Shown: positions 39,895-56,401, numbered from the stretch's first letter. The stretch: DNA of 64,000 nucleotides from Candidatus Auribacter fodinae (GCA_003599815.1 QZJZ01000010.1:15050-79049), one strand, 5' to 3'. The notes: generated by a model not told the origin, from the letters alone. Numbers and translations: made by a program.

Positions 39895-41553
39895 ATGAAT
39901 TTCAAAGAATGCATATCACAACTTAATCCGAACCACTTAAAAACCATTACGGAGACGTATGGTATTGTAATAATACCGTTCGCTTCGCAACATGCTCGCG
40001 ATAAACTATTTGAGTATAGCAATAAACCGAATTTTTTCAAGGAATGCCTTGAATATTTATCGCCGGAACAGAAAAAAAGTCTTTTTTTGATCAATTTTTT
40101 CGCTGACTATCTTCCAGCGCCAATCATTAATCAATTCGTTGAGCAATCCGTTCCATGCCAAAAGATATTCGAAACCATCACTGTCCTTCTTAATGCAGGA
40201 TTCATTTTTCATATTATCAACACCGACACGGATGATTCGCATTATATTGTTCCTGATGAATTGCGCACGCTGCTTCATTCAATAGTGGCGAATAATAGAG
40301 CGCTTCTGTTCCCGGCCGAATCAATCGCTCCGTCACGCATCCATGCTGAACACGGTTCATTCATTCTTGGAGTGTTCGCTGTACTCATCGCAGGATTGAA
40401 AGACGAATTGCGCTTTAACATGGATAAAACGCTTAACAAGCGCGTCATAAATAAACTATCCAACCAGCTCTGCGTTATCGCCGACTCTCTGGGAGAAGAT
40501 ACGCTCTCGGCATACTGTAACGCATTGCTGGCGTATGTTACGTCTCTTGACCTGATTACACTCCGGGATCTTAAGCCTCTTTTCCGTATTAAACCGATTA
40601 ACGCATGGGTAAACCTCTCCTATACAGCAAAACAGGCGTCCTTTTTAAATTTCATTATAACATCATACGATGCTAACTACTCATGGCGCTCAATGATGCG
40701 GTTCATGGCGGAAATGAAGGAAGAAACCTTTTATCCTATAACTGCGCTGGCGGAATTGTACAAATCATTCTTTAAAGGCGATAATTTCTCGGAAGATACG
40801 TTTTATCGCAAACCATTATCGTATTTTCCCGTCTTCATACTCCACCAGCTCGATATTATAGAAATCGGTTCAAGCGACTTAGATACATTCTGCGCATGGA
40901 AAATTACCGACTCCGGCATGTGCCTTGTAAAAGGGATTATACCTGAAGCGGGAGAACCTCAGTACGATAACCGCATTATTATTCAGCCTAATTTTGAACT
41001 GATCATATCCAGAGATGCCGATCCACGCATATTGTGGAAACTCTATCTTGCCGCTGATATACACCAATGTGATTTTCTGATGCGGTTTCATTTCAATCGC
41101 CATTCTGTTCATCGCGGATTATCTCAGGAACTTGCTCAACCAGATATTTTTTCGATTCTGGAATCCAACACTGACCAGCCAATACCTCAAAACGTCTTGT
41201 ATTCACTAACGGAATGGTGCGAAGAATATGGATCTGTTTACTTTATGGACGTCTTCCTGCTTCGATGCAAAACCGCCCAACTGGCGGAACAAATCAGCCT
41301 GCATCCCAAGACACGAGATTATATTAAAGGTTCGTTTTCCGATACCGATTTGATTATCAGCAGGGAAGATTATCAGGACGTGTTTGATATCCTGCATTCA
41401 CTTGATCTGATGCCATTACGTAAAATCCGCAAACCGGATGCTAAATCGACTGAAAATATTCCTGATTTTTTAATTGATAACAACTATGTTCTGCGCCCTG
41501 TTTCGCAGTATAACGGACAGTCACTCAAATTTATCCCGGGCATAATAATATGA
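39895..41553 (+). CDS. XPB-helicase-associated partner protein of unknown function
   Basis: 552 aa with no catalytic motif I recognise. Its stop overlaps the start of the XPB-like helicase (ATGA), implying a co-translated pair. Confidence 0.5.
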   Translation: MNFKECISQLNPNHLKTITETYGIVIIPFASQHARDKLFEYSNKPNFFKECLEYLSPEQKKSLFLINFFADYLPAPIINQFVEQSVPCQKIFETITVLLNAGFIFHIINTDTDDSHYIVPDELRTLLHSIVANNRALLFPAESIAPSRIHAEHGSFILGVFAVLIAGLKDELRFNMDKTLNKRVINKLSNQLCVIADSLGEDTLSAYCNALLAYVTSLDLITLRDLKPLFRIKPINAWVNLSYTAKQASFLNFIITSYDANYSWRSMMRFMAEMKEETFYPITALAELYKSFFKGDNFSEDTFYRKPLSYFPVFILHQLDIIEIGSSDLDTFCAWKITDSGMCLVKGIIPEAGEPQYDNRIIIQPNFELIISRDADPRILWKLYLAADIHQCDFLMRFHFNRHSVHRGLSQELAQPDIFSILESNTDQPIPQNVLYSLTEWCEEYGSVYFMDVFLLRCKTAQLAEQISLHPKTRDYIKGSFSDTDLIISREDYQDVFDILHSLDLMPLRKIRKPDAKSTENIPDFLIDNNYVLRPVSQYNGQSLKFIPGIII

Positions 41554-43235
41554 AGTATCAACCAGACAACCCTTTAATCGTGCAGAGCGACAGCACTATT
41601 CTGCTCGAGGTAAACAACACGAAATACCAGGAAGCCCGTATCTGTATCAGCCGTTTCAGCGAATTGGAAAAATCTCCCGAACATATTCATACATATAGAA
41701 TTACTCCATTGTCTCTATGGAATGCCGCTTCAAGCGGGCTTGATCCGAACACTATCATAGATCAACTCAATGCATACTCAAAATACGATGTCCCGCAAAA
41801 TGTACTGCGCGACATCCTTGAATTTACCGGGCGTTACGGCAAAGTCAGATTGACTAAAGCAGATGATTCCGATGTATTGCTCCTTCACTCAACAGATCCG
41901 ATATTTATAGAGGAAATAAGCCACAATAAAAGCGCTCTCCCCTATATCGCCGGCAGAAAAGATGACAACCATTTGGAAATCAAACCTGAACACCGCGGAA
42001 TGATTAAACAGGTACTTATAAAAATGGGGTTCCCGGTCGAAGACCTTGCCGGATACAGACAGGGAACGCCGCATCCAATACATTTACGTGCTGAAACCAG
42101 TGCAGGACATCCGTTCAACCTGCGTCATTATCAGGAAGACTCAGTCGCTTGTTTTTATCAGGCAGGAAGCGTGCGCGGAGGCTCAGGAGTAATCGTGCTT
42201 CCCTGTGGCGCCGGTAAAACAATTATCGGTATAGCGGTTATGTCTCAACTTCAGACCCAGACACTGATCTTATGCACAAATATCGTCGCAGTACGGCAGT
42301 GGATGGATGAAATACTCGATAAAACCGACATCAGGCCAGAAGACATCGGTGAATACAGCGGCGAAAAAAAAGAAATCAAGCCGATAACCATTTCCACATA
42401 CCAGATACTCACCTACCGGAAAGACAAACAGTCCGATTTTGCTCATTTCCACTTATTTAACTCTCAGCAGTGGGGCCTGATCATATACGATGAAGTACAC
42501 CTTCTTCCCGCGCCGATATTCAGGATAACATCATCCATACAAAGTACTCGCCGTCTCGGTTTAACCGCTACTCTTATACGAGAAGACGGGCATGAATCCG
42601 ATGTATTCAGCCTGATAGGACCCAAAAAACAGGATATCCCGTGGAAAGAACTGGAAAAAGAAGGCTGGATTGCCACAGCATTCTGCCATGAAATACGTGT
42701 TCCGCTTCCTGATCACCTGCGAATGCAGCACGCTATGGCTACCTCAAAAACACAATATCGAATCGCGTCCGAAAATACAGCGAAAATATCTATCGTACAA
42801 AAACTTCTTGAAAAACATAAAAATGACAACGTGCTGATTATCGGCCAGTTTCTCACACAACTGGACGAGATAACAGAAGTAATAAAAGCCCCATTGATTA
42901 CCGGCAGTACAAAAAACGAAGAGAGGCAACGGCTATACTCTGAGTTTAAATCGGGTAAAATCAAAATACTTATTGTGTCCAAAGTCGCTAATTTTTCCGT
43001 TGATCTGCCTGACGCCAATGTCGCGATTCAGATTTCCGGCACATTCGGGTCAAGACAGGAAGAAGCGCAACGTCTGGGGCGTATTCTTCGCCCGAAAAAA
43101 ACAGGCGAACATGCCCATTTTTATTCCATCATAACCCGTGAAACGGCTGATCAGAAATACGCGGCAAAACGGCAGTTGTTCCTGACTGAACAAGGATACA
43201 GTTACGAGATCATTGATTCTAAGTCATTGGAATAA
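41550..43235 (+). CDS. XPB/Ssl2 (ERCC3)-like SF2 DNA helicase with N-terminal damage-recognition-like domain
   Basis: N-terminal PLIVQSDSTILLEV... DRD-like region. Helicase motif I, LPCGAGKT; motif II, IYDEVHLL; motif III, LGLTATLIRED; C-terminal RecA2 with ...QRLGRILR... Confidence 0.8.
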   Translation: MKYQPDNPLIVQSDSTILLEVNNTKYQEARICISRFSELEKSPEHIHTYRITPLSLWNAASSGLDPNTIIDQLNAYSKYDVPQNVLRDILEFTGRYGKVRLTKADDSDVLLLHSTDPIFIEEISHNKSALPYIAGRKDDNHLEIKPEHRGMIKQVLIKMGFPVEDLAGYRQGTPHPIHLRAETSAGHPFNLRHYQEDSVACFYQAGSVRGGSGVIVLPCGAGKTIIGIAVMSQLQTQTLILCTNIVAVRQWMDEILDKTDIRPEDIGEYSGEKKEIKPITISTYQILTYRKDKQSDFAHFHLFNSQQWGLIIYDEVHLLPAPIFRITSSIQSTRRLGLTATLIREDGHESDVFSLIGPKKQDIPWKELEKEGWIATAFCHEIRVPLPDHLRMQHAMATSKTQYRIASENTAKISIVQKLLEKHKNDNVLIIGQFLTQLDEITEVIKAPLITGSTKNEERQRLYSEFKSGKIKILIVSKVANFSVDLPDANVAIQISGTFGSRQEEAQRLGRILRPKKTGEHAHFYSIITRETADQKYAAKRQLFLTEQGYSYEIIDSKSLE

Positions 43236-43430: not shown

Positions 43431-43524
43431 ATATAATGAAAGTGTAATAAAGCATGCTCTTTTTTTGTATTAAGAATAACCATACGTGTATTCACTAATG
43501 ATTATAAACATAAGGAAACGCATT

Positions 43525-46500
43525 ATGAGCACACTCCCCCTTCGAAACAGTGGTATTCGCGTATTATGCGCAATAGTGATATCACTTGTACTAGCAATGA
43601 ACTGCACGCTTCTTTTTGCCCAGTCCAGCAATAGCAGAAAAATAACCCGCGACAGAGAATCCACGCCTGATCGGGATGAACACATCTTTTTACGACGCAG
43701 TCACATAAATACGCGGTTCCATGACAGAACAAAAATACCTCGTCAATTAAGGACACGTTTTGCAAACAGGTTCATCATACAATTCAGCGATACCATTGAC
43801 GAATCATGGATTAATCAGCTGAATGATGCCGGGATAACCCTCGTTTCTTATATTCCTGAAAACGCATATATAATCACCATGAAAGAAGACGCGCCTATCG
43901 ACTGGTCACAGTTCCCTTTTGTCACATGGGCAGGCCCATATGAAGCGTACTATAAGCTGTCTGATGAAATTATCGCCAAAATTGAAGAACAACAGGATGT
44001 ACAGCCGACAGAAGCGGATCAGGAATTTCCTGAAATAATCTCTTTGAATGTGCTCTTTTTCCCGGGGGAAGAAGAAAAAGCGATTGAACAGATCGAAAAC
44101 CTGTTCGGTGAAGTCGTTTCTACCGTCAAACAGGGTTCTTTATCAATGGCAACCGTCCTGATACCCAGTTACCATCTCGAACAGGTAGCGCAGATTGACG
44201 GTGTAAAATGGATAGAAAGCGAACCGCGCTTAGTAAAACATAACGATCTTTCACGCAACCTGACCGGAGTTACCGCAACACTGCTGTCACACGCAACCCT
44301 GACAGGACGCGGTGTCATAGTTAATGTAAATGATACGGGAGTTGACCATACTCATCCCGCATTTGCGCTTAATCCCCTGCTCCCCACAAGTTATCCAGAT
44401 AACAACACCCGCATACGATACTATTCATGGGGTTCAGGAGAACAGGGTGACACTGACGCCCACGGCACACATGTATCAGGGTCTATACTCGGCAATGGCG
44501 CACTTTCCAATACAATCATTTCCGCTCCGGGTTCAACATACCCGTACTCAGTAAAAGGTATGGCTCCCGATGCGGAACTGGTTCTTATGGAAATATTTAA
44601 TGGAGGCGGTATTGCGCACACTACTATTTTAAACACCGCCTATACGCAAGGCGCCCGCATATCGTCCAACAGCTGGGGATACAACGGTTTTTTCGGTCCG
44701 CTTGCGCAATACGATTCTAATGCCGCAATATATGATGCCGGAGTCAGAGATGCGTTAAATATGACTTCAGGAGATCAGGGTTTGACAATATTGTTCGCCG
44801 CAGGTAATTCCGGTGGAGGAACCACGAACGGCCTCGGCGGAAAACCCAATACCGTCGCTTCGCCGGGAACAGCGAAAAACGTGATTACTGTCGGTGCGTA
44901 CGAACTTAACAGAAACGCTGACAACCACAATAACGCGGCAAGCAATGACAACGTTGGCGAAGTATCTTATTTCAGCAGCCGCGGTCCTGTGGAACCGGGT
45001 ACAGACGGTGAATTCGGGAGATTTAAACCGGATATCGTCGCTCCGGGCGTCTATGTTCTTTCAACGCATTCTTCTCAGTCCGAGGATTCCGATTCGTCAC
45101 CGACATCGTGGGATTACAAAGCGGGTAATGTCGACTCCGGTCCCCGATACGAATTTATGTCAGGGACAAGCATGGCATGCCCTGTCACAGCCGGAGTCAG
45201 TTCTCTTATTTATCAATACTACCGAGACCTCGGCAAAGCCATATCTCCCGCCTTACTTAAAGCTCTGCTTATCAATGGAGCCCGCAGTCTGAGCGCAATT
45301 TACGATTTTAATACTAAAGCAGATATAATTTATCAGGGCTGGGGAGGAATCAATTTACAAAATTCTATAGACGGACCGAACGGCATTGGTGACGCGAACG
45401 ACCTGCTTGTCTTCGATCAAGGAGATTTAGGCCTCTTGGAAACAGGCTCCACAGCTACCACCATTATTGCGGTTAATGACCTTTCACGCCCATTGCGTAT
45501 CACGCTTGTCTGGACAGACCCGCCGGGAGACCCCGCCGCTGATATAACACTGGTCAATAACCTTGACCTGCTTGTCACCGCGCCTGACGGTAAAGTATAC
45601 AGGGGTAATAACTTTCCTAAAGGCAGTACATGGACGGCTCCGGACGGCGAACACGATTTTATTAACAATGTTGAAAACGTCTATATCGACTCAGCGCTCA
45701 TCGGCGCCTATACTATATCTGTTAAAGGAACCTCCATTAACGCTGATGCCTGCACACAAACTCCCGGTACAATAGATCAGGATTTCGCGCTGGTTATCTC
45801 AGGAAGTATGGGATTCGAACCGCAGAGCTTCGCTTTAATCACCGTCAATAAACCGGTATGTAATATCGGTGAATTTATTACTGTATCCGTCGCAGATAAT
45901 GACCTCGCCGGATCAGGGTCATGCACCGTAACCGTATCCAGCGAAACGGAAACAGGCGAACAAATGACTCTTCTCGAATCCGCAACTGATGGTGTGTTTA
46001 ATGGTACCATACAGGTTGACAACGGCCCAGTCCAGGCTGGCGACGGCAAAATTCAGGTGGTTCAGGGAGAAGATATTGTCTTTACTTTCATAGATCAGGA
46101 TGACGGACAGGGCAATTTTAATACTCCTCGAACGGCAACAAGCCGCAGTAATACACCCCCTGTATTCTCCGGACTGCAATCATTAACGGAAGAAGAAAGT
46201 CAGATAACCATTTCATGGACTCCTGCCGTTGATCAGGAATCGCCAATAATCTACCGCATTTTCCGTAGAAAAGCCGGAGAAAGTTTTGATTTTTTCAGGC
46301 CATATATGGAAACAACAGACTTCTCCTTTACCGACACAATAGTTTCAGCGATCGTCACCTATCATTACCTTGTCCGTGCGGTCGACAAATATAACTTGTC
46401 AGACAGCAATACAGTAGAGTTATCAGGCAGTCCGGATGACTCAGTACCTCCATCATTTGAAGGATTAAAGGACATCTCTGCCGGTGACAGTACCATTCAG

Positions 46501-49500
46501 CTTGTCTGGTCACCCGCCTATGATCCGAGTTACCCAGTTTCCTACAATATTTACCGGGCAACGACATCCGGCGCTCAGGATTTTAATACTCCCCTTCACA
46601 CGCTGGCAGATCTTACAAAATATACAGATAACACAGTCACAAACGGTATCATGTACTTCTATGTGGTACGCGCTATAGATGCTCTGGGCAATGAAGACAA
46701 CAATACAGTTGAACTGTTCGCACAGCCTGATACACCTCCAAGCAACGTTATTTTTGTTGATAAAGACCGGCTGGGCGGTGGAAACGGTACTTCATGGCTT
46801 CAGGCATACAATAACCTCAGCCTTGCTATTAATGACGCGCAATCAGGCGGTAATCAGATAATATGGGTAGCCGAAGGCACCTATTATTTCAATGATACTA
46901 TTGTTATTCCTAACGGCGTGAAAATTTACGGCGGATTTGCCGGCGACGAAGTCAGCGAAACAGCCCACGAAACCCGTAATCCGCTGGAGCATAAAACAAT
47001 CTTCAAGAATAATTCCTTCTTCGCGGAATCTACTGTCCAGCTTGGCGAGAATGCTCTTCTCAATGGTGTCTATGTCAGTAAATATTATTCCGTATTTTTC
47101 GATGGAGTTGCTATAACCACTGTCGATTCCGGTGCGGAAATTAACCAGTGTGTAATCTACGACTCCAAATGGGGCATTCACAATAAGTCAACGGGTTCAG
47201 GCACTAAAATTTATAACTGCGTATTTCTGAACAACGAAATAGGCGTAGTCATGGACCAGCCGACAGTATCTCTAATTAACAATACATTTCAATTTAATGA
47301 TACCGCGGTTTCCATACTCACCAGCGGAGCCGCAACAATTAAAAACAACATTTTCTACAAGTGTGATGATTATGCGGTAAAAAATACCGGTTCAAGTACA
47401 ACTATATCACTTAACTATAACAATTATTTTGAGAATGGCGACAATTATTTGAATTTGTCGCCCGGGAACAATGAACTGTACGACGACCCTATATTTATAT
47501 CGGAAGACCTGGATTTTCATCTTGGTAAAGGATCTCCATGCATTAACGCCGGTGCAGCGTTAATCAATGACTATGATATCGAAGGGCAAACACGTTCTTC
47601 TGCGGCTATTGATATTGGCGCGGATGAAGTTGAAGTTGTCGATACGCCTTCAACAGCTATGCTCTTTGAAATACTCAACGACCCTATCGGTATGGTCAAA
47701 ATAACCGCAACAGTCAGTGACCCTAACGGTGATCTATGCAGAATGAAGCTGGAACATAAGGATTTGCTTGATCGGAACGCTCCCTATTTTAACAGTATAT
47801 GCGATGGACCTATAAGTTCAGTGCTCGGCTCGCCGCCGGACATCACAAATGATATGGACTACCAAATCGGTTCCAAAACACCTCTGCAAACCTTGGTAGC
47901 CAATACGTTAACATTTTATTGGAATTCAGGCAAAGACGTGTATTTTAAATATCACGTTCCCGCGCCCCGAAAAGAGTATAATATAAAACTCCGTCTCACT
48001 GTTAATGACGGAAAAGCGGATGACACTGCACCGCCTCAACCGAGTTTATATCTTGATAACCGACCGGTTATGCTCACTGAACCCGAATTCACCATAGGCA
48101 CAACAAATACGGTTCACTGCAAAGCGATTGAGCAAGCGTCGCAGTTCTGGTTCCAGGCATCAACATCATCGGCGTTCTCATCCATATTTGCTCAGAGCGG
48201 GTGGATACCCACCTCGTCACATACATTTACCGGTTTGGCGCAAGGCACTCAATACTATTTCCGTACTAAAGCAAGAGCGCTAAAGACTACATCAGCCCAG
48301 TGGATTCAGACAAAATGGAATGAGTTTAACACCAATTCACTGACTGACATTGACGTTATTACTCAACCGTTATCTGCAATACTCAACAGCGATTTTTCGT
48401 GGAAAAATGAGTTAATCCTTGATAGAAGTTTTGAAAGTATGTCCGGCGACTGGACTACCGGCGAGTCGATCAATGCATCGTCGGACAGCCTGATTGTTCA
48501 GAAAAACGGTACATGGGCATCTGATGGTGCATACAGCGCCAAAATTGCCAATAATACAGAGTCATTGAACTATCCCAATGATTACGGATACGTTCGTCAG
48601 AGCATTAACTTAACCAATGTCAGCGCATTGTTGTTTGATGTTAAGTACGAAGCGCTCAACCCAACCGGGCTCAAGGTAAAAGGACAACTCCGTGTCGGCA
48701 GTAAAATCCTGTGGGAAAAGGCTATATCTGGCGATCATCTGAATCAGGAAGTTGATGTTTCAGACATTACCGGCGCACAAAACGTGGAATTCAGGCTGGT
48801 ATTTCTTGATTATGTGCTTTCCACCACTACTTCCGATTTGTTCTCCATGCACATTGACAACATGCGGGCAAAAGGCCTTCAGCTCTATGATAACGACGGC
48901 GGGGTTATGGTAACACCTGTAATTTCACCAACAACTTTTGTCCGCTGGGAAACATTGCAGTATTCAACTTCAAATATCACCGACGCTACGGATGTGACTA
49001 TAGATGTGCTCGATTCATCCGGCAACGTATTGCTGGCAGATGTTCTCAGTACAACTGACTTGATGTCAAACGGAATCACTGGCCCGATCAAACTGCGGGC
49101 AACACTATATTCCTCTGATCCGGCTCAGACACCTGCTTTGGATGAATGGAGTATTACCTACATTGAAAAAGAAAATGAGGCTATTGATTCGGAATATTCC
49201 ACATCAACAACGTCTTATCAGGATTTTGACACGGATAACGACGGGATGCCGAACCAATACGAAACATATTACTCAACTCATCTTGCTGACCCATCCGCAA
49301 TACCGCTTGACCCGGCTGTTGCGGATGGCTCGGTCGACAGTGATAATGACTCCAAATCCAACTTCTGGGAATATATTACAGGCACTGACCCAACTGATCC
49401 GGCTGATTTTATAGAAATGACATCTAACATCACTTACACTGACGGCGTTACTGCTGTGGTATTAACAATACCATCCAAGGACGCACGGTGGTATGAAGCG

Positions 49501-49659
49501 TTCTCCTCTGAATGTGATACATCAGCACCAGTATGGACTCAATTGGGTGAAACCATTCGAGGCAACGGACTTAATATAACCTTTACGGATACGGATGAGG
49601 ATCTTGAGATTCCGTACGAAAAGAAGATATATTTTATCCGCATAAAACGTGACAACTAA
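43525..49659 (+). CDS. Giant (2044 aa) secreted subtilisin-like serine protease (S8) with FN3-like, right-handed beta-helix and Ca-binding repeat regions
   Basis: Signal peptide MSTLPLRNSGIRVLCAIVISLVLAMNCTLLFAQ with an AAGGA ribosome-binding site. S8 catalytic triad motifs VNDTGVDHTHP (Asp), HGTHVSGSILG (His) and GTSMACP (Ser). Two FN3-like modules (PPVFSGL...ISWTP; PPSFEGL...LVWSP). A beta-helix cap ...GGGNGTSWLQAY...GTYYFNDTIVIPNGVKIYGGF and NNxF repeats. C-terminal D-x-D-x-DG thrombospondin-type-3-like Ca-binding motifs. Confidence 0.85.
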   Translation: MSTLPLRNSGIRVLCAIVISLVLAMNCTLLFAQSSNSRKITRDRESTPDRDEHIFLRRSHINTRFHDRTKIPRQLRTRFANRFIIQFSDTIDESWINQLNDAGITLVSYIPENAYIITMKEDAPIDWSQFPFVTWAGPYEAYYKLSDEIIAKIEEQQDVQPTEADQEFPEIISLNVLFFPGEEEKAIEQIENLFGEVVSTVKQGSLSMATVLIPSYHLEQVAQIDGVKWIESEPRLVKHNDLSRNLTGVTATLLSHATLTGRGVIVNVNDTGVDHTHPAFALNPLLPTSYPDNNTRIRYYSWGSGEQGDTDAHGTHVSGSILGNGALSNTIISAPGSTYPYSVKGMAPDAELVLMEIFNGGGIAHTTILNTAYTQGARISSNSWGYNGFFGPLAQYDSNAAIYDAGVRDALNMTSGDQGLTILFAAGNSGGGTTNGLGGKPNTVASPGTAKNVITVGAYELNRNADNHNNAASNDNVGEVSYFSSRGPVEPGTDGEFGRFKPDIVAPGVYVLSTHSSQSEDSDSSPTSWDYKAGNVDSGPRYEFMSGTSMACPVTAGVSSLIYQYYRDLGKAISPALLKALLINGARSLSAIYDFNTKADIIYQGWGGINLQNSIDGPNGIGDANDLLVFDQGDLGLLETGSTATTIIAVNDLSRPLRITLVWTDPPGDPAADITLVNNLDLLVTAPDGKVYRGNNFPKGSTWTAPDGEHDFINNVENVYIDSALIGAYTISVKGTSINADACTQTPGTIDQDFALVISGSMGFEPQSFALITVNKPVCNIGEFITVSVADNDLAGSGSCTVTVSSETETGEQMTLLESATDGVFNGTIQVDNGPVQAGDGKIQVVQGEDIVFTFIDQDDGQGNFNTPRTATSRSNTPPVFSGLQSLTEEESQITISWTPAVDQESPIIYRIFRRKAGESFDFFRPYMETTDFSFTDTIVSAIVTYHYLVRAVDKYNLSDSNTVELSGSPDDSVPPSFEGLKDISAGDSTIQLVWSPAYDPSYPVSYNIYRATTSGAQDFNTPLHTLADLTKYTDNTVTNGIMYFYVVRAIDALGNEDNNTVELFAQPDTPPSNVIFVDKDRLGGGNGTSWLQAYNNLSLAINDAQSGGNQIIWVAEGTYYFNDTIVIPNGVKIYGGFAGDEVSETAHETRNPLEHKTIFKNNSFFAESTVQLGENALLNGVYVSKYYSVFFDGVAITTVDSGAEINQCVIYDSKWGIHNKSTGSGTKIYNCVFLNNEIGVVMDQPTVSLINNTFQFNDTAVSILTSGAATIKNNIFYKCDDYAVKNTGSSTTISLNYNNYFENGDNYLNLSPGNNELYDDPIFISEDLDFHLGKGSPCINAGAALINDYDIEGQTRSSAAIDIGADEVEVVDTPSTAMLFEILNDPIGMVKITATVSDPNGDLCRMKLEHKDLLDRNAPYFNSICDGPISSVLGSPPDITNDMDYQIGSKTPLQTLVANTLTFYWNSGKDVYFKYHVPAPRKEYNIKLRLTVNDGKADDTAPPQPSLYLDNRPVMLTEPEFTIGTTNTVHCKAIEQASQFWFQASTSSAFSSIFAQSGWIPTSSHTFTGLAQGTQYYFRTKARALKTTSAQWIQTKWNEFNTNSLTDIDVITQPLSAILNSDFSWKNELILDRSFESMSGDWTTGESINASSDSLIVQKNGTWASDGAYSAKIANNTESLNYPNDYGYVRQSINLTNVSALLFDVKYEALNPTGLKVKGQLRVGSKILWEKAISGDHLNQEVDVSDITGAQNVEFRLVFLDYVLSTTTSDLFSMHIDNMRAKGLQLYDNDGGVMVTPVISPTTFVRWETLQYSTSNITDATDVTIDVLDSSGNVLLADVLSTTDLMSNGITGPIKLRATLYSSDPAQTPALDEWSITYIEKENEAIDSEYSTSTTSYQDFDTDNDGMPNQYETYYSTHLADPSAIPLDPAVADGSVDSDNDSKSNFWEYITGTDPTDPADFIEMTSNITYTDGVTAVVLTIPSKDARWYEAFSSECDTSAPVWTQLGETIRGNGLNITFTDTDEDLEIPYEKKIYFIRIKRDN

Positions 49660-49682
49660 ACCTTATAATTTCTCTGTCTCAA

Positions 49683-49720
49683 AGCCCCTTCCTGAACCAT
49701 TTAGGAAGGGGCTTTTTATT
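49683..49720 (+). terminator. Rho-independent terminator after giant subtilase gene
   Basis: An 11 bp stem AGCCCCTTCCT / AGGAAGGGGCT with a 9 nt loop, followed by TTTTT. Confidence 0.6.
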
Positions 49721-49794: not shown

Positions 49795-49803
49795 TGGTAT
49801 AAT
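49795..49803 (+). promoter_or_regulatory. Extended -10 promoter (TGGTATAAT) for second giant gene
   Basis: TGnTATAAT lies about 60 nt upstream of the ATG at 49865. There is no good -35, which is consistent with the extended -10 class. Confidence 0.35.
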
Positions 49804-49864
49804 AGTATTGTATTTTTTTTACATTTACTGAGTGTCACCGCCACTAAAGGATTATATACATAGC

Positions 49865-52800
49865 ATGAAAGCAAAGAAGTATTTTTATACATTCTGCACG
49901 ATCCTCTTTCTTATTACATATTGTGCATTCAGCCAAAATACAATTAATCACTCATATGGTGAAGAACCTGCCATATCCAGCCGTTCAGAAACCGCATACG
50001 AACCTTCACTTCGGGAAATTCTGGATACGCGATCATACTCTTTAATTGACTGGTACAAGGGAAATTCCAACGTATTTATACTCAATATACAGGATTTTCA
50101 CGGCAATTATGCCACTCAAAAAAAATATTCCGCCCTATTCGAGAGCCTTATAAAAAGCAATCACACGTTCAATATTAAATATATTGCTGTCGAAGGGGCT
50201 TCAGGCATTATAGACACAACAACCGCCTCAACATACCCCGATGAGGCAACACGTAATGAAGTCGCTAATCAATTTTTGAATAGAGGATTTATTTCAGGCA
50301 TAGAGTACTACTCTATTACCGCTGATGATGCTCCGCCTATCATCGGGATCGATGATGCTTCCCTGTATAGAAAAAATGCTGAATTGTTTCTCCGTCTTCA
50401 GGATGAGAACAGCGAGGAAATAAAACGTGCCTCCGCCTTTATGTCATTTGTACAGCAGGAATCCGCCGTTGTAATTAATACTATTCTTTCAGAGGATGAA
50501 AGAATTATTGTCACAGCTTTCACAGAATGGGTAACCAGCCGCATTTCGTCACTGGAGTATCTTCAGCAGATCAGCACTGTTAAACACGGTTCCGGCTTAA
50601 TTCCGCGTTACGCATCGCTCGACCGGCTTCGACACGCTGTAAAATTACAAACTGAAATAATGTATGACCAGCTAGAAAGGGAAAAACTGGAGTTCCTTCA
50701 CTCTGTTCACGCAATTATTCTTCCTGATGAGTATAATGAGTTATCCAAAAACATCATGCGTGCGTCTGTGGGGTCAATTGCGTCTGACGCGGTATACGCA
50801 AAAATTAGTGAAATAGCTGAACGTTATTCCCTGTCTCTTGACACATATCCAACTATTACCAGCATGACAATCATATCCAAAGCGTTTTCTTCTGTTACCG
50901 AGCAAGAGCTTCGGAAAGATTTGTTCTCATTTACGACTGAACTTGTTTCATCTGTCCCCGGACATCATCAGAGTATCACGGATATCCTTGCGTACGTCCG
51001 CATGACAGCCGTCATTGACGCTGTTACACAAACCCGCGCATCAAGAGAAGAATACGACTTTTACAAGAGTCAGTTTGAATCAGCATCCGCAGAAAAACTG
51101 CTTGATACTTTCAAGAATATCACCGGCAAAGATTTATTTGAAGGAACAAACGACACTGAATTACGCAATGTAGACTATATCCTGTCCATGGCAGATCAAT
51201 TCTATCAGGAAGCGCTTAAGCGTGACCAGCTCCTGCTTGAAAACAGCCTCCGTGTAAACCAGAAACTGAACGGCAAAACTATCGTTATGGTTACAGGCGG
51301 GTTTCATTCGGATGGGATAGCCGCGCTGTTAAAAGAACGGTCTATTTCATATGCTATCATTCGCCCTTATCTTGGAGCAGGCAGTTTAGAGTCAAACTAT
51401 AAATCCCTGATGTTTAACCAAACGCCTGCTTTCGACCACATTCTGTCTGCGTTGCCTGGCATGCTGATGCCCTCCTCAAATTTCAGGAATATTTTATACC
51501 CGGCAAATAAAGCGGTTCTACTGGCAAAGTGGATAATTATATCCGAAGCGATAAATCTTGCGCGGGAATCACAAAAACAAATACTCACCGCTGAATATCT
51601 CGCGTCAAGCATTACCGCCCATCAGACAAAATGGCTTGAGGAACTCCGCAGTGAACTTGACTCACGATATAAACCCCTTATCACCGCAGGCATAGCCACA
51701 CCAAAAGATATAGATGTAGAATTTGAGCGTTTCAGAGAAATATTGAATGCCATTGAATTTGATAGAAACGCCTATGCCGTCTACAACTTAATTCCAATAG
51801 TCATTCATGGTGAAACGCCCCATCGGATCATACTCAGCGTAAGTCCGGATAGCACAGTCACACCTCAACTGCCCGATTTTATAGATCTGCTGGATGACTA
51901 CAAAAACCCCTACTATCATTTTCGGATCTGGAACGAAGCAGAGCTGGAACACTATACCCGGCTGTCGGATATAATTGAAAGCAAAGATCTCGAATTATCA
52001 ACTGAAGCGCGCCAAAACATCCTTGTCCTTATGGATTTGTTCGGGTTAGAAACAGTCGACCAGCTTATTGAGGATATGCCCTCCTCAGCTTTAAATTCTC
52101 TGTTGGAAAGCCTCCCTGATTATGAGGAATTAAAACAGTTTGTCACCATGGCAGGGCATGAAAACGCGACTGAACTGCTGATATGGGACCCTCAAGGCTT
52201 TTTCAATTTGGTCTACACGTTTGAGAACATAGACGATACCGAACTTCAGACAAATTACATAGAACTATTGCTGTCACAACGACCGTCTTACCAGAATGGC
52301 GCGGGCAAAATGCCGGAATTCGTTATACAGCAGGCTTCTCTGTATGATGTTGATGAATGGATGCAGTACGGTATACCCAGAACGTTCAGCAGAGAACATT
52401 GGGAATCGGCAGATACAAATGATTTCTTCTACAAAGCTATGGCCGCTAATGGAACAGTCATAGGGTTAATCAGCGCCCGTATAGCTGAAGGACATAACCT
52501 AGTTTATGTTGATTTTCTGGAAACCTGTTCTACCGTTCAGCATAAAGGTATTGGGACAGCTCTTATCAAATCTATTGTTGCAGAAAGCCTTCGGAGCGGC
52601 TTTGACGGTTCCGTTGCGCTTGATCCGCAATTCGGATCCAAGCCATTTTACACAAAATTAGGATTTATTGAGCAAACCAAAGGCAACACCTACCTACTCT
52701 TGCCGGAAGAAAACGCACTGAAGCTGTTAGGATCGCCCGAAGACATTAAACGGGAATCCAAAGTAAAAATAGATGAACAGCGTCTTGCAGAAATAGCATC

Positions 52801-55800
52801 ACTGCCGCAACTTCAGATAATCGAGCAGATAATCCCGCTTTTTCAGCGTTACAACAGCCTCACCAACGACAACAAATTACTCCTGATCAGTCAGCTGATG
52901 GCGGTGTACAATCTGAATCAGGAGCAGGCATTGAACGAACTATACATGATGTTGTCCAGCCCGTCTGTTTTCACAAACAAACTAACGGAATTGTATGATC
53001 TCATGATGGATACATGGATAACCTCTCAGGAAACCACGGACGAACTGCCTAATGCCGTCATTCGCCCTACACTCGGGCAATTGCCTGATGAAATGCAGGT
53101 TACATTTCCGCTTTTTCACCCTAAATATACATCTGTTCTTTTTTCTTTAATCGAACTTAACAAAACAACATCGCCTACTTCATTTGATGCTCCTTTGCGC
53201 GACACCCCTTCCGCTCTGAAATTTATACGGTACATGCTCCAGCAAAATGCGCTGTTTATGGACGTTGTTGCTGTACCTGAGAACGATCCCCGCATTAGCG
53301 GCAAAACCGCAACCCTGGAAGACAACATCCTTTACATCAACGAAAACGCTACCCGTGCCGAATTGTGGTTCTATCTTCCTCATGAGATTTCGCACCTGTT
53401 TAAAAATGAAACTGCCGCCCGGCTTCATGACGCCGACAATATCAATCATTTAAAAAACATAGCGAAAACGCTCCGGGAAGTTGCGGTTCAACTGCCCGTC
53501 GGAGAACGTAAGGATATGCTGATACAAATGTCGTCAGCAGTAATGAAGCACGCATTATCCTTTGAATTGGACATCCATACTGCTTATATGCAGTTAACGA
53601 CTCCCGGAAAGAACATTCTGAGAAACAACAACCTGCCTTATTTCGATACGGAAAATGAATTATACCTTGCTTCTATTGCGGGCGCGGCGTCCCGGCTCAG
53701 GGAACCGGTTACGGATTTAAAATTATTTTCTGAAATAGAAAAGCTTGCGGCAGATGCCAGCGTATCTGTGGACCAACTGACAGCCAGAGTAAACCGGATA
53801 GTTACCCGAAAGATAATTAACAATTCTCTCGAACAAATAAAACCCTATCAAAACGATATTGATGAGATAATTCAAAACTGGCTGAAAAAACAAATTAAAC
53901 ACCGTTTATGGCATTTCACAACACACGCCATGCCCCGTGATTTGCGCCCCTTTGTAACAACATCCTCTCGTGAACTTGGATACCTTGATATAAATGATAT
54001 CCGCACACGAATCGTCGCTCATATTAGATCAATTGAAGATCCCAAAGCAAAAGCCGATTTTGAAGAAATTGTTGCGAAATGGCTTAAACGACTAATATCT
54101 GATAATATTAAATCGCTTAACTTACCCAGTGACCTGCGTTCCGCATTGAATGACGGCTGTTCCAATTGTCTCGGTTATGCCAAACTCTATCGCGCCTTAG
54201 GGTTTCAATTCGGGCTCAACATCGAAGTCACTCTTTATTATTACGAAACGAACGATGTTCCACACCTGCATGCCGCGAATTTAGTGCTTCTTTCTGATGG
54301 ACATCGCTATCTTACTGATATTGGTGACCTTACACAGTATTCACCTCCCTCGCATGTGTGCGTACAACTCGAATCGAGTACCGGGCTTACACCCGCAACG
54401 ATCACCATGCAGGATTATTTAATACATAGCAGAATTATCCGAGGTGTTCCTGAAGAATATGTCAGCGCCTTCGGATATTCTAACAAAGCCTATGACTTAT
54501 TTGTCTACGACTCACGTGTTGAACAGGCATTCCATGCGATTTCAAAAGCGTATGCCCTCGCTCCCGGCAACCCGTACATCGCCTCTAACATGGCAGAGAT
54601 ATCTTTCAGCCATTGGAAGAGATCTCTTACCAGCTTGGGAATCCAGCCGTCTCAAGAGGAACTCCTTGATAAACTTCGCGAATTGTATGAACAATATCAA
54701 TTGCATATCAATTCAATGGAATCCCTGAACAACTACTACAAGGCACAATTGAAAAGCGCGGCGAGAATAGCAAAAGTAGAAATGGTAAACCCCATTAACG
54801 GCGGCAACGGTAATTTCAGGTTCCCGCTATACCAGAATGTACAGAAAAAACAGGAACCGGCAGAAACAGCGGAAACGCAGAAGCCGCAAACACCATCACA
54901 GCCTGTTGACCGTGAAACAGCCGCAAAAAACGATGCAATGGCGCTCGATCATCTTCAGAGAATGGGCGAGATGAACCGCATTGCCCATGGAATCACACCC
55001 ACACAACAAGGATCAAAAACGGAAAATGCCCTGTTTCAATACAAAGTCAATCAATTGCTTGGTACCGGTATAGACTACAACACTGCACGCAGTCTTATAC
55101 AAACAGGAGCGGCTCTGCAAAAAATGATTGAACAACAACAGTTTCAACAAGTAAATGCACGCCTGACGGGGCTTGACCCTCATTTTGCAGAACGGATTAT
55201 GATCGAATTCCCGTATATCATGGCCTACTTACTGGAAATTTATCCTGAATGGTGGAAAGGAAAAGAACTCCGTGAACTCGCTCGCCAGCACCGGCTGACT
55301 GAAGAGGTAAAAGCAATGGTGAGAAAACAGATGACTACTGTAACGGCAACTCAGTCATCACAGGATCGTGACAACATTCGACGCCCTTATGAGTTTAACC
55401 CGCTGTGGACAATCGCCCGAGACCGCGCCAAATTATTGAACAGCCTTGAAAGAGCATATGAACAGGATAGAATTACCGATCAGCAATACCGCGCAATTTA
55501 TAGCCTTCTTACTGCAGATTCCCCTGTTTCAAAAGAATCTTTATCATATGAACAAAGAAGGGTCTTATTTGGCAAAGAAGATGAAATACCTGTACCCGGC
55601 GGATTATCTGTTAGCAATAACTTTATACTCGGAGACACGTTCATCGACGTTCCTAAAACCACTGAATTCAGCACATACGCATCATTCCTTACTACACTTG
55701 TTGATGAGCATCCTCAGGAACTCGCTCTTGTCCTGAATGATATGGATCAGGAACCGTTTCTCGCGGGTATCGTTGCGGCCCGCAAAGGAAAATCTTTCAG

Positions 55801-56314
55801 CAGAGCCCATGCAGACGCGCGAGGCGGGTTATCGTCCGTCGCGGATGACCTTCTGTCTTCTATCAGCGGTGACCAGATCGAATCTTCCCTTGAATCGATA
55901 AGTGAATCAGGGTATATACGCGTTTTTCTTGAGGAGTTGTTCACCTCAAATATACTGCGAAAAGACATTCAGGCATTTGTCAGGTCAGTTCAGGAAAAAG
56001 GGATTTTATCTCCGCAGGAAAAAACTATGTTCGCTTATTTCAATAATTATTATATTACCGGTGATGAAAATACAAAATCATTTCGGGACGGAATCACTCT
56101 TGTAGAGCAACTCTTTCGTATTGATAATGATGTTCGGGATCAACTGACCGCATTGCAGGCACAATTACGCGATGCTGACCCCGGCAAATTCTTATTCGCA
56201 TTAATCACGTCGACTTATTATGACGCGTCAGGTACTCTGGTTTCTCCGACACAGCCGGCATCTGCTTTACGAGGTTATTCTGTCCGGCGTGACCTTCTCG
56301 AACAAGCATTATAA
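49865..56314 (+). CDS. Giant (2149 aa) secreted multi-domain protein: TIKI/TraB/GumN-like domain + GNAT acetyltransferase + HExxH motif + transglutaminase-like Cys-His-Asp core + long helical C-terminal region
   Basis: Signal peptide MKAKKYFYTFCTILFLITYCAFSQ. The N-terminal ~450 aa carry the ...FILNIQDFHGNY... and ...TIVMVTGGFHSDGIAALL... pair characteristic of the TIKI/TraB/GumN/ChaN family (nt ~50040-51330). A GNAT fold follows: ...VIGLISARIAEGHNLVYVDFLETCSTVQHKGIGTALIKSI...YTKLGFIE (nt ~52400-52680). HEISH at nt 53381-53395. A TGase-like core ...CSNCLGYAKLYRALGF...HLHAANLVLLSDGHRYLTDIGD (nt ~54160-54330). Confidence 0.8.
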   Translation: MKAKKYFYTFCTILFLITYCAFSQNTINHSYGEEPAISSRSETAYEPSLREILDTRSYSLIDWYKGNSNVFILNIQDFHGNYATQKKYSALFESLIKSNHTFNIKYIAVEGASGIIDTTTASTYPDEATRNEVANQFLNRGFISGIEYYSITADDAPPIIGIDDASLYRKNAELFLRLQDENSEEIKRASAFMSFVQQESAVVINTILSEDERIIVTAFTEWVTSRISSLEYLQQISTVKHGSGLIPRYASLDRLRHAVKLQTEIMYDQLEREKLEFLHSVHAIILPDEYNELSKNIMRASVGSIASDAVYAKISEIAERYSLSLDTYPTITSMTIISKAFSSVTEQELRKDLFSFTTELVSSVPGHHQSITDILAYVRMTAVIDAVTQTRASREEYDFYKSQFESASAEKLLDTFKNITGKDLFEGTNDTELRNVDYILSMADQFYQEALKRDQLLLENSLRVNQKLNGKTIVMVTGGFHSDGIAALLKERSISYAIIRPYLGAGSLESNYKSLMFNQTPAFDHILSALPGMLMPSSNFRNILYPANKAVLLAKWIIISEAINLARESQKQILTAEYLASSITAHQTKWLEELRSELDSRYKPLITAGIATPKDIDVEFERFREILNAIEFDRNAYAVYNLIPIVIHGETPHRIILSVSPDSTVTPQLPDFIDLLDDYKNPYYHFRIWNEAELEHYTRLSDIIESKDLELSTEARQNILVLMDLFGLETVDQLIEDMPSSALNSLLESLPDYEELKQFVTMAGHENATELLIWDPQGFFNLVYTFENIDDTELQTNYIELLLSQRPSYQNGAGKMPEFVIQQASLYDVDEWMQYGIPRTFSREHWESADTNDFFYKAMAANGTVIGLISARIAEGHNLVYVDFLETCSTVQHKGIGTALIKSIVAESLRSGFDGSVALDPQFGSKPFYTKLGFIEQTKGNTYLLLPEENALKLLGSPEDIKRESKVKIDEQRLAEIASLPQLQIIEQIIPLFQRYNSLTNDNKLLLISQLMAVYNLNQEQALNELYMMLSSPSVFTNKLTELYDLMMDTWITSQETTDELPNAVIRPTLGQLPDEMQVTFPLFHPKYTSVLFSLIELNKTTSPTSFDAPLRDTPSALKFIRYMLQQNALFMDVVAVPENDPRISGKTATLEDNILYINENATRAELWFYLPHEISHLFKNETAARLHDADNINHLKNIAKTLREVAVQLPVGERKDMLIQMSSAVMKHALSFELDIHTAYMQLTTPGKNILRNNNLPYFDTENELYLASIAGAASRLREPVTDLKLFSEIEKLAADASVSVDQLTARVNRIVTRKIINNSLEQIKPYQNDIDEIIQNWLKKQIKHRLWHFTTHAMPRDLRPFVTTSSRELGYLDINDIRTRIVAHIRSIEDPKAKADFEEIVAKWLKRLISDNIKSLNLPSDLRSALNDGCSNCLGYAKLYRALGFQFGLNIEVTLYYYETNDVPHLHAANLVLLSDGHRYLTDIGDLTQYSPPSHVCVQLESSTGLTPATITMQDYLIHSRIIRGVPEEYVSAFGYSNKAYDLFVYDSRVEQAFHAISKAYALAPGNPYIASNMAEISFSHWKRSLTSLGIQPSQEELLDKLRELYEQYQLHINSMESLNNYYKAQLKSAARIAKVEMVNPINGGNGNFRFPLYQNVQKKQEPAETAETQKPQTPSQPVDRETAAKNDAMALDHLQRMGEMNRIAHGITPTQQGSKTENALFQYKVNQLLGTGIDYNTARSLIQTGAALQKMIEQQQFQQVNARLTGLDPHFAERIMIEFPYIMAYLLEIYPEWWKGKELRELARQHRLTEEVKAMVRKQMTTVTATQSSQDRDNIRRPYEFNPLWTIARDRAKLLNSLERAYEQDRITDQQYRAIYSLLTADSPVSKESLSYEQRRVLFGKEDEIPVPGGLSVSNNFILGDTFIDVPKTTEFSTYASFLTTLVDEHPQELALVLNDMDQEPFLAGIVAARKGKSFSRAHADARGGLSSVADDLLSSISGDQIESSLESISESGYIRVFLEELFTSNILRKDIQAFVRSVQEKGILSPQEKTMFAYFNNYYITGDENTKSFRDGITLVEQLFRIDNDVRDQLTALQAQLRDADPGKFLFALITSTYYDASGTLVSPTQPASALRGYSVRRDLLEQAL

Positions 56315-56344: not shown

Positions 56345-56380
56345 AAAAAAGAGCGGATCATCCTGATCCGCTCTTTTTAT
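56345..56380. terminator. Bidirectional rho-independent terminator shared by convergent giant gene and PFOR
   Basis: AAAAAAA-GAGCGGATCA-tcc-TGATCCGCTC-TTTTTAT. The A-tract and T-tract flank a 10 bp stem, so it can function on both strands. Confidence 0.6.
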
Positions 56381-56401
56381 TCGTATGGTTCATAGAACCA
56401 T

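Follow-up and report, generated by a model that had tools for sequence, protein, structure and literature searches.

A long multi-enzyme protein of Candidatus Auribacter fodinae with a Sec-type signal and a Tiki-like head shared by a very large protein family

Described systems and their relation to the locus

The gene considered here lies at positions 49865-56314 (+ strand) of a 64,000-nucleotide stretch of DNA from Candidatus Auribacter fodinae (GCA_003599815.1 QZJZ01000010.1:15050-79049), the whole of which is called the window. It encodes a chain of 2149 residues in which a Tiki-like N-terminal module is followed by GNAT, HExxH, transglutaminase-like and TPR-like parts. For the head, the closest described proteins are those of the Tiki superfamily (Tiki1/2, TraB/PrgY/GumN, the erythromycin esterases or Ere, Bcr135/136, ChaN, RRSP, and HopBA1), which have in common with the present protein that the second His stands in a G-x-x-H motif. 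Where Tiki, TraB/PrgY, and ChaN domains have been characterized, they lie outside the cytoplasm. The Ere and Bcr135/136 proteins carry a helical lid, and like the head of the present protein they are larger than the minimal core (EreC 408 residues, 2qgm 392 residues). The general layout of the superfamily is an acid-x-His, a Glu about 28 residues further on, and then a second His; the catalytic set of 2 His and 2 Glu is E3900-x-H3902, E3930, and H4030 in RRSP, with H85/E113 in Bcr135 (PMC6254334). The same layout and spacing are seen in the present protein, where an Asp (D77) replaces the first Glu. It departs from the superfamily in an insert of about 300 residues with a conserved pattern of its own, and in that the module invariably stands first, at the N-terminus of chains of 0.5-6.7 thousand residues.

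A second group for comparison is formed by the long Omnitrophota proteins, which 2 preprints describe as 10-147 thousand residues in length and as grouped by their C39, SecA, and dockerin content (10.1101/2023.11.21.568195; 10.64898/2026.06.07.730766). These proteins resemble the family of the present protein in joining a signal peptide or transmembrane segment to arrays of unrelated enzymes (GNAT, methyltransferase, HATPase, phosphoglucomutase). Most relatives of the present protein also belong to the same phyla, whereas the protein itself has only 2.1 thousand residues and comes from Auribacterota. The N-terminal regions of the Omnitrophota giants are described as generally without identifiable domains (10.1101/2023.11.21.568195), and a text search of the 2 preprints found no mention of a Tiki- or ChaN-like N-terminal module in either.

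MARTX and polymorphic toxins are likewise single exported chains with several enzyme modules, and they share with this family a constant N-terminal part and variable downstream content. A papain/transglutaminase-like module and an acyltransferase are also found among the MARTX effectors. These effectors include a Tiki-fold module as well, RRSP (PMC6254334). In contrast to these toxins, the C-terminal 430 residues of the present protein are conserved in all 5 of its full-length homologs, no toxin family was matched, and the cargo of its relatives consists largely of sugar-nucleotide and regulatory enzymes. Pfam revealed neither glycine-rich/RTX repeats nor a cysteine protease domain of the inositol-phosphate-activated MARTX type or a type I secretion signal. 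The protein likewise went without a match in NCBIfam and PADLOC. No immunity gene lies directly downstream, where a terminator and the convergent gene for pyruvate:ferredoxin oxidoreductase (PFOR) are found instead. A preliminary description of the sequence had considered such a chain typical of polymorphic toxins, surface-remodelling factors, or host-interaction effectors; the polymorphic-toxin view failed on 3 points, which are the lack of an immunity-like gene downstream, the conserved C-terminus, and the lack of a recognized toxin domain.

The N-terminal head and its family

The open reading frame covers 49832..56314 (+) of the window, and translation from the ATG at 49865 yields 2149 residues (~240 kDa) beginning with MKAKKYFYTFCTILFLITYCAFSQ. 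An identical sequence is deposited as RJP61702.1 / UniRef100_A0A3A4RAP3, from the metagenome-assembled genome of Candidatus Auribacter fodinae; it is named 'GNAT family N-acetyltransferase' by NCBI and 'Zn-dependent peptidase ImmA (M78 family)' by JGI. The 2149-residue chain is one real gene, and the preliminary description of it at 49865-56314 is confirmed by the reading frame and by the identity with the deposited protein. All 4 motif sites named in that description were found at the positions given (H79/H481, the GNAT, HEISH, and C1435/H1469/D1485), and its central proposal, the fusion of 4 different enzyme-type modules behind a signal peptide, was supported. According to profile and conservation checks, all of the motifs are more than fortuitous.

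Residues 1-24 (49865..49936, +) were assigned as the signal peptide, composed of MKAKK, YFYTFCTILFLITYC, and AFS, on the basis of sequence features and a family-wide pattern. This N-terminus, MKAKKYFYTFCTILFLITYCAFS followed by Q, has the appearance of a Sec signal peptide. Among 177 family members, 97% have a positively charged n-region ahead of the module; the hydrophobic run has a median length of 13 residues, and the module begins about 38 residues after it. The ending ...NIAFA, followed by D, is common among the sampled members. Since a charged n-region, a short hydrophobic run, and an NIAFA-type end are features of cleaved Sec signal peptides, the chain carries a Sec-type signal, built like a signal peptide that can be cleaved, and it is probably exported across the cytoplasmic membrane with cleavage of this peptide. 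Beyond the signal peptide, no transmembrane-like segment is present in the protein; a candidate at residues ~543-560 was dropped as amphipathic and too short. In the family, 119 of 181 sampled members also have none after the module, and the other 62 have at least one.

The head itself, residues ~62-565 (50048..51559, +), is predicted to be an alpha/beta core of the Tiki/TraB/Ere/ChaN superfamily split by a helical insert of about 300 residues. An AlphaFold2 model built with an alignment of 35 modules reached a predicted local distance difference test score (pLDDT) of 85.6 and a predicted template modeling score of 0.80. In this model the strand-helix core falls into 2 parts (residues ~58-165 and ~470-500) with about 300 helical residues between them, and the central parallel sheet with flanking helices that marks the superfamily is present. 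Among the closest folds recovered with the module are those of 2 effectors, HopBA1 and RRSP, and of a toxin, PMT. The model thus shows a fold of the Tiki/erythromycin-esterase hydrolase type with a helical, lid-like insert. A search of PDB sequence profiles with the module gave only weak EF-hand-type matches, all to the insert. Observed separately, the insert (window ~50420-50780, residues ~185-305) has weak family-profile similarity to EF-hand pairs of myosin light chains, centrin, and calmodulin (best E 6.6e-4), and 1 family member matches Pfam EF-hand_8.

The proposed catalytic set consists of D77-x-H79, E110 (+31), and H481, accompanied by the conserved Q85, R453, G478-G479-F480, and P501. 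H79 is encoded at nucleotide 50099 and the GGFH481 motif at 51296-51307, with the H481 codon at 51305-51307. In the alignment of 35 modules, H79, Q85, E110, R453, G478-G479-F480-H481, and P501 are invariant, and of 188 family members sampled, 186-187 retain D77, H79, E110, and H481. The His pair expected for a Tiki-like domain is therefore intact, the active site as a whole looks intact, and the head may be an active peptide- or ester-bond hydrolase. No match of the module to PF01963 (TraB), PF05139 (Ere), or PF04187 (ChaN) was found in Pfam at E<=1, and PF04187 (ChaN, 'Tiki superfamily') matches the modules of 9 of the 35 relatives, with a best E of 4.8e-5. The module is therefore a new branch at the superfamily level. 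The earlier assignment to a TIKI/TraB/GumN-like domain is right for the superfamily, but it does not extend to membership in the TraB, GumN, or Tiki families proper.

A comparison of the protein with 45 database relatives by BLAST showed that about 40 long proteins (1.5-3.7 thousand residues) match only its residues ~62-550. In these proteins the shared stretch always lies at the N-terminus, and those with a named source come from Omnitrophota and Elusimicrobiota. A profile search with the module through 1.84 billion cluster representatives, counted as clusters at 50% identity, yielded 10230 clusters with a threshold of E<=1e-3; with E<=1e-30 the number is 7376, which is taken as a minimum for the size of the family. 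Among the best 150 matches the module starts at residue ~22-126 and the proteins are 537-6707 residues long. The present protein scores 446.7 bits against the family profile and has the family layout, in which a Sec signal is followed about 38 residues later by a module of ~480 residues and then by more than 200 residues of other domains. Named members belong mostly to Omnitrophota, with Elusimicrobiota and Auribacterota in addition. A scan of species-representative genomes with the narrow motif [HN][ILV]QDAHCN, which samples that subgroup only, gave 371 confirmed loci; nearly all of the 80 that are listed come from Omnitrophota, and a few genomes have 2 copies.

The content behind the module is diverse. 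Sugar- and nucleotide-type cargo is represented by phosphoglucomutase, NTP transferases, UDP-glucose pyrophosphorylase, NAD epimerase, UDP-glucose dehydrogenase, and GT2. Other members carry CofD, phosphoenolpyruvate-utilizing enzymes, PP2C, ABC1, M48, HATPase with GNAT, or methyltransferases, and still others AAA+, WD40, TPR, or sigma-70-like (helix-turn-helix) domains. Some relatives have domains of the DNA-binding or sigma-54-activator type. It can be seen that the module is the constant N-terminal head of a very large family, on which the preliminary description is silent, and that the rest of the chain is a variable enzyme array. Neither Pfam nor NCBIfam has a model for the module, no paralog of it was found elsewhere in the window, and no description of the family was found in the literature within the libraries and searches used. 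The earlier statement that no characterized family has this architecture agrees with the absence of coverage in Pfam, NCBIfam, and PADLOC.

A side observation concerns the Omnitrophota subgroup. At 41 of 80 Omnitrophota loci (L005-L084), the same-strand reading frame directly upstream belongs to one large-protein family, which has transmembrane segments, no Pfam match, and no relative in the window (for example L024:47-2707, ~2.5 kb). This family may be a conserved partner in the subgroup.

Downstream modules, homologs and gene neighborhood

The first of the downstream enzyme modules is the GNAT acetyltransferase domain at residues 837-934 (52373..52666, +). PF00583 matches it with an E of 4.4e-9 and 37.1 bits against a cut-off of 20.7, and the domain is present in 5 of 5 full-length homologs. 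The coenzyme A (CoA) pyrophosphate loop (motif A, Q/R-x-x-G-x-G/A) is Q892-H-K-G895-I-G897, in which G895 and G897 are invariant. With a score above the Pfam cut-off and the QxxGxG motif in place, the earlier placement of a GNAT with an intact CoA motif at ~52400-52680 is upheld. Its nearest solved structures, weakly matched in a PDB profile search, are N-terminal acetyltransferases of the Naa30/Naa50 type. In P0005, a paralog treated below, a second GNAT-like domain was noticed at residues ~700-850 and alignment columns ~718-873, inserted where the present protein has its acidic linker.

Behind the GNAT domain follow a helical HExxH module at residues ~1086-1349 (53120..53911, +), assigned from alignments, the structure model, and sub-threshold Peptidase_M78 matches, a transglutaminase-like or papain-like module at residues ~1358-1520 (53936..54424, +), and, directly after it, TPR-like helical repeats at residues ~1530-1625 (54452..54739, +), recognized from PDB profile and fold matches. 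The block was aligned for 6 sequences, with homologs at 25-37% identity that include 1 Omnitrophota protein (P0006). Only 53 of 566 columns are invariant, and among these are H1173, E1174, H1177, E1182, D1189, E1234, D1236, N1434, C1435, H1469, and D1478-G1479. The HEISH motif corresponds to residues 1173-1177, exactly at nucleotides 53381-53395, and C1435, H1469, and D1485 are encoded at 54167, 54269, and 54317. D1485 (H+16) is Asp in 5 of the 6 homologs and Asn in 1.

A structure model of residues 1060-1625 reached a pLDDT of 82.5, which is good for a shallow alignment. The HExxH helix of the model covers residues 1164-1179, with HEISH at its end, and E1182 opens the next helix; E1182 is therefore a candidate third metal ligand in the model, and D1189, E1234, and D1236 are further candidates. 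The ImmA/IrrE proteins (Peptidase_M78) resemble the module in having HExxH in a helix, and M78 is the best Pfam match in 5 of the 6 homologs, although below threshold in all 5 (best E 3.2e-4, 17-19 bits versus 22). In IrrE the third ligand is a Glu about 27 residues downstream. The candidate Glu of the present protein differs in standing at +5 after a turn, and the protein has no helix-turn-helix partner. No zincin fold occurs among the fold matches listed for the module. Of the earlier zincin-like proposal, the HEISH motif stands, with residues invariant in the 6 homologs, but the M78 scores and the fold search do not bear out the rest; the zincin assignment, which draws on invariant residues and weak profile matches, is weaker than first described.

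For the Cys-His-Asp module, the model places C1435 at the N-terminal end of a helix, H1469 on a strand, and D1478-G1479 in a hairpin turn. D1478 was rejected as the catalytic Asp for its position in the hairpin turn, while D1485 at H+16 fits the canonical spacing. The same arrangement, with the Cys at a helix N-terminus, the His on a strand, and the Asp at H+16, is known from transglutaminase-like enzymes (3ISR, TglA, LapG, PNGase, vasohibin, and the arylamine N-acetyltransferases). What distinguishes the present module is its fusion downstream of an HExxH module, a pair that is conserved as one block between Auribacterota and 1 Omnitrophota protein. The Pfam model Transglut_core reached 13 bits against a cut-off of 23 and matched 2 of 6 members, below threshold; the fold search and the model agree on a transglutaminase-like fold, so that the assignment is supported at the level of the predicted fold. 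The transglutaminase/papain-like core described earlier is thus retained for its fold match and its invariant C1435 and H1469, though not for its profile score. A TPR directly after the transglutaminase core, as found here, also occurs in SirB1-type proteins. PDB profile searches with the alignments of this block and of the full-length proteins gave TPR and weak GNAT matches only.

Besides the head, the Omnitrophota protein P0006 (2837 residues, TPR-rich) shares residues 1055-1567 of the present protein, with an identity of 26%. This indicates that the HExxH, Cys-His-Asp, and TPR parts form one conserved block, and that the 2 enzyme-type parts travel together with the TPR, a point absent from the preliminary description. 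Taken together, the conservation patterns indicate 4 enzyme-type modules with key residues under selection.

The remaining parts of the chain are less widely shared. An acidic region at residues ~566-836 (51560..52372, +), with 48 D+E and 19 K+R in residues 560-830, is conserved only among the 5 full-length homologs. Residues ~1640-1720 (54782..55024, +) are poorly conserved, with a short P/Q/E/T-rich segment, and are likely a linker. The C-terminal region at residues ~1721-2149 (55025..56311, +) is conserved in the 5 homologs, with motifs such as DEIPxxGG, EHPxEL, and YYxxGDExT. Among 188 sampled family members, residues 566-1085 and 1640-2149 are shared by none outside these homologs.

The full architecture is found in only 5 proteins, P0002-P0005 (30-37% identity) and the near-identical P0193, which falls in the same 90% cluster; a second homolog search with the full-length alignment brought no new full-length homolog. 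P0005 (NCBI GCA_040756935.1) and P0193 derive from the same sequencing run (SRR29635779) and are both recorded on a 516410-bp NCBI contig. These shared records suggest that a second Auribacterota metagenome-assembled genome probably holds 2 paralogs in different neighborhoods, one near-identical to the present protein (P0193) and one 30% identical (P0005). As a further observation, a 3475-residue protein with a methyltransferase domain is encoded 10 kb downstream of P0005 (L001/L002, 26738-26810 and beyond, - strand), and the Elusimicrobia protein P0044, which has the N-terminal module, also carries methyltransferase domains. The 3475-residue protein may be another member of the family in Auribacterota.

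Directly upstream of the gene lies an S8 subtilase gene at 43486-49659 (+), recognized through Pfam and encoding 2044 residues counted from the Met of its own signal peptide. The subtilase contains fn3 and right-handed beta-helix parts and also matches 'choice-of-anchor Q' and, weakly, TSP3. Upstream of the subtilase gene, 2 tandem overlapping genes were noted at 39895-41553 and 41550-43235 (+, window 39895-43235). The latter encodes an XPB/RAD25-type helicase (Helicase_C_3, ResIII, ERCC3_RAD25_C), and the counterparts of the former in L003 and L085, where the gene pair is conserved, carry Helicase_C_3. P0002, with 37% identity, and P0193 both retain the order helicase-helicase-subtilase-gene, and the neighborhood of P0193 is the same as that of the window. 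No subtilase is found near the paralog P0005, which follows a divergent GH16 gene, or near the homolog P0003, which sits among unrelated genes. Downstream, no small gene is conserved in L001-L004.

Between the subtilase stop (49659) and the gene lies an intrinsic-terminator-like hairpin of 16 pairs followed by a T-run (49681..49715, +). On the other side, a GC-rich hairpin of 10 bp with A-run and T-run flanks, read from the sequence and resembling a bidirectional terminator (56350..56378, not assigned to a strand; hairpin 56350-56374), lies between the gene and the convergent PFOR gene; a terminator scan reported the adjoining hairpin 56385-56401 in its place. The hairpins at 49681-49715 and 56350-56374 agree with the earlier view of a gene bracketed by terminators and mark it as a separate unit. 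The extended -10 promoter described for it was found as TGgTATAAT at 49795..49803 (+), 62 nucleotides 5' of the ATG, a putative promoter-like site. This sequence is a consensus match only, as a promoter scan gave no more sites than shuffled sequence.

Where and how the protein may act

The reading preferred here, and given about even confidence, is that of a Sec-exported multi-enzyme protein with a hydrolase head and protein- or peptide-directed cargo that acts outside the cytoplasm of the producer. The chain would be moved across the cytoplasmic membrane and its signal peptide removed, the head would cut a peptide or ester bond, and the cargo would acetylate proteins or peptides and then cleave or cross-link them, with the TPR part holding the substrate. 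The site of action might be the producer's own envelope, an extracellular protein, or another cell. Several points weigh against this reading. A GNAT requires acyl-CoA, which is not expected outside the cytoplasm, and the cargo of the relatives (phosphoglucomutase, UDP-glucose pyrophosphorylase, NAD epimerase, phosphoenolpyruvate-utilizing enzymes, AAA+, HATPase, and sigma-70-like helix-turn-helix domains) represents typical cytoplasmic chemistry that is ill-suited to export. The HExxH module lacks a zincin fold match and has only sub-threshold M78 scores, and no family match was obtained for residues 566-836, 960-1085, and 1640-2149, about 40% of the chain. The further idea that the head may also cut its own chain is pure analogy.

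The cofactor difficulty would disappear if the N-terminal stretch were an uncleaved anchor, or export incomplete, so that the protein formed a membrane-tethered enzyme scaffold with its whole array, the GNAT too, on the cytoplasmic face; the same has been proposed for many of the long Omnitrophota proteins. The need of the family cargo for acetyl-CoA, nucleoside triphosphates, NAD, S-adenosylmethionine, and phosphoenolpyruvate speaks for such a scaffold, as do the DNA-binding or sigma-54-activator-type domains of some relatives; the later transmembrane-like segments of 62 of 181 members could return cargo inside, and the 2026 preprint reads similar content as compatible with the cytoplasmic face (10.64898/2026.06.07.730766). 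Yet a positive n-region, a short h-region, and ends of the AFA/AFS type, all seen here, characterize cleaved Sec signals with N-in/C-out orientation, and neither the present protein nor 119 of the 181 members has a second transmembrane-like segment. Characterized Tiki, TraB/PrgY, and ChaN domains, moreover, lie outside the cytoplasm. On balance a cytoplasmic-face scaffold is considered unlikely. A delivered effector is a similarly doubtful alternative. Here the exported protein would enter a different cell, whose cytoplasm supplies the GNAT with acetyl-CoA, and one or more of the peptidase-type modules (Tiki-like, HExxH, Cys-His-Asp) would release the others, as happens in MARTX and polymorphic toxins. 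Delivery of this kind would reconcile the signal peptide with cofactor-dependent cargo; it is in line with the nearest folds of the head (HopBA1, RRSP, PMT) and with the constant head and variable cargo of the family, and releasing peptidases of the zincin and transglutaminase-like types occur in polymorphic toxins. Omnitrophota have also been inferred to be host-dependent or predatory (PMC10066038; 10.1101/2023.11.21.568195). Against delivery stand the absence from the protein of RTX or glycine-rich repeats and of a known translocation or receptor-binding domain, the lack of an adjoining secretion-system gene and of an immunity-like gene downstream, the C-terminus, which is conserved and not polymorphic, and the absence of a PADLOC match. 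In addition, Ca. Auribacterota are by inference free-living fermenters (PMC9324843). The source habitat of Ca. A. fodinae is deep-subsurface fluid (PMC9324843).

The preliminary description had also placed the gene directly after the 2044-residue subtilase and proposed that the 2 proteins may form a pair. The position is correct, and a functional pair, in which the subtilase matures or cuts the 2149-residue protein or the reverse, could appeal to the signal peptides on both proteins, to the gene order kept in P0002 and P0193, and to the proposal that S8 domains cut giant Omnitrophota proteins (10.1101/2023.11.21.568195). However, the interval between the 2 genes holds a strong terminator and a promoter-like site separate from that of the subtilase gene, and the likewise conserved upstream helicases point to plain synteny by descent. 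Since the subtilase is absent beside P0005 and P0003 and kept only in close orthologs, it was rejected as a conserved partner, and a dedicated partnership is very unlikely. Least probable of all is a mostly non-catalytic scaffold, in which an envelope protein with a structural or binding role would carry the motifs as relics; it is hardly to be credited. The sub-threshold Pfam scores of the HExxH and Transglut_core matches could be read in this way. ChaN, moreover, is a Tiki-superfamily member that is not a hydrolase. The same is true of PMT C1/C2 (PMC6254334). Such relics are contradicted by the proposed catalytic residues and the CoA loop, all of which show complete or almost complete conservation among sequences with an overall identity of 20-37%.

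Returning to the exported multi-enzyme protein, the finding fits known kinds, namely the Tiki superfamily and the long multi-enzyme proteins of the Omnitrophota type, and is not a new kind of system. It is more interesting at the level of the family than as a single gene. Thousands of long proteins from uncultured phyla, at present called 'hypothetical' or named after one cargo domain, would gain an annotated start from a profile of the module. The occurrence of canonical signal peptides on enzymes with cytoplasmic cofactors is a paradox, and it bears on whether the long proteins act inside the producer, at its surface, or in other cells. A more speculative and rather improbable proposal is that the Tiki-like head marks an unrecognized effector platform in Omnitrophota, Elusimicrobiota, and Auribacterota. 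The constant head would serve Sec-exported chains for processing or entry, and variable cofactor-dependent enzymes, in the present protein an acetyltransferase and 2 modules of the peptidase type, would thereby reach the cytoplasm of other cells. If true, this would explain the presence of enzymes for acetyl-CoA, nucleoside triphosphates, NAD, and S-adenosylmethionine behind canonical signal peptides in thousands of chains. With 2.1 thousand residues, no extra transmembrane segments, and protein-directed modules only, the 2149-residue protein of Auribacterota is a tractable test case for this family.

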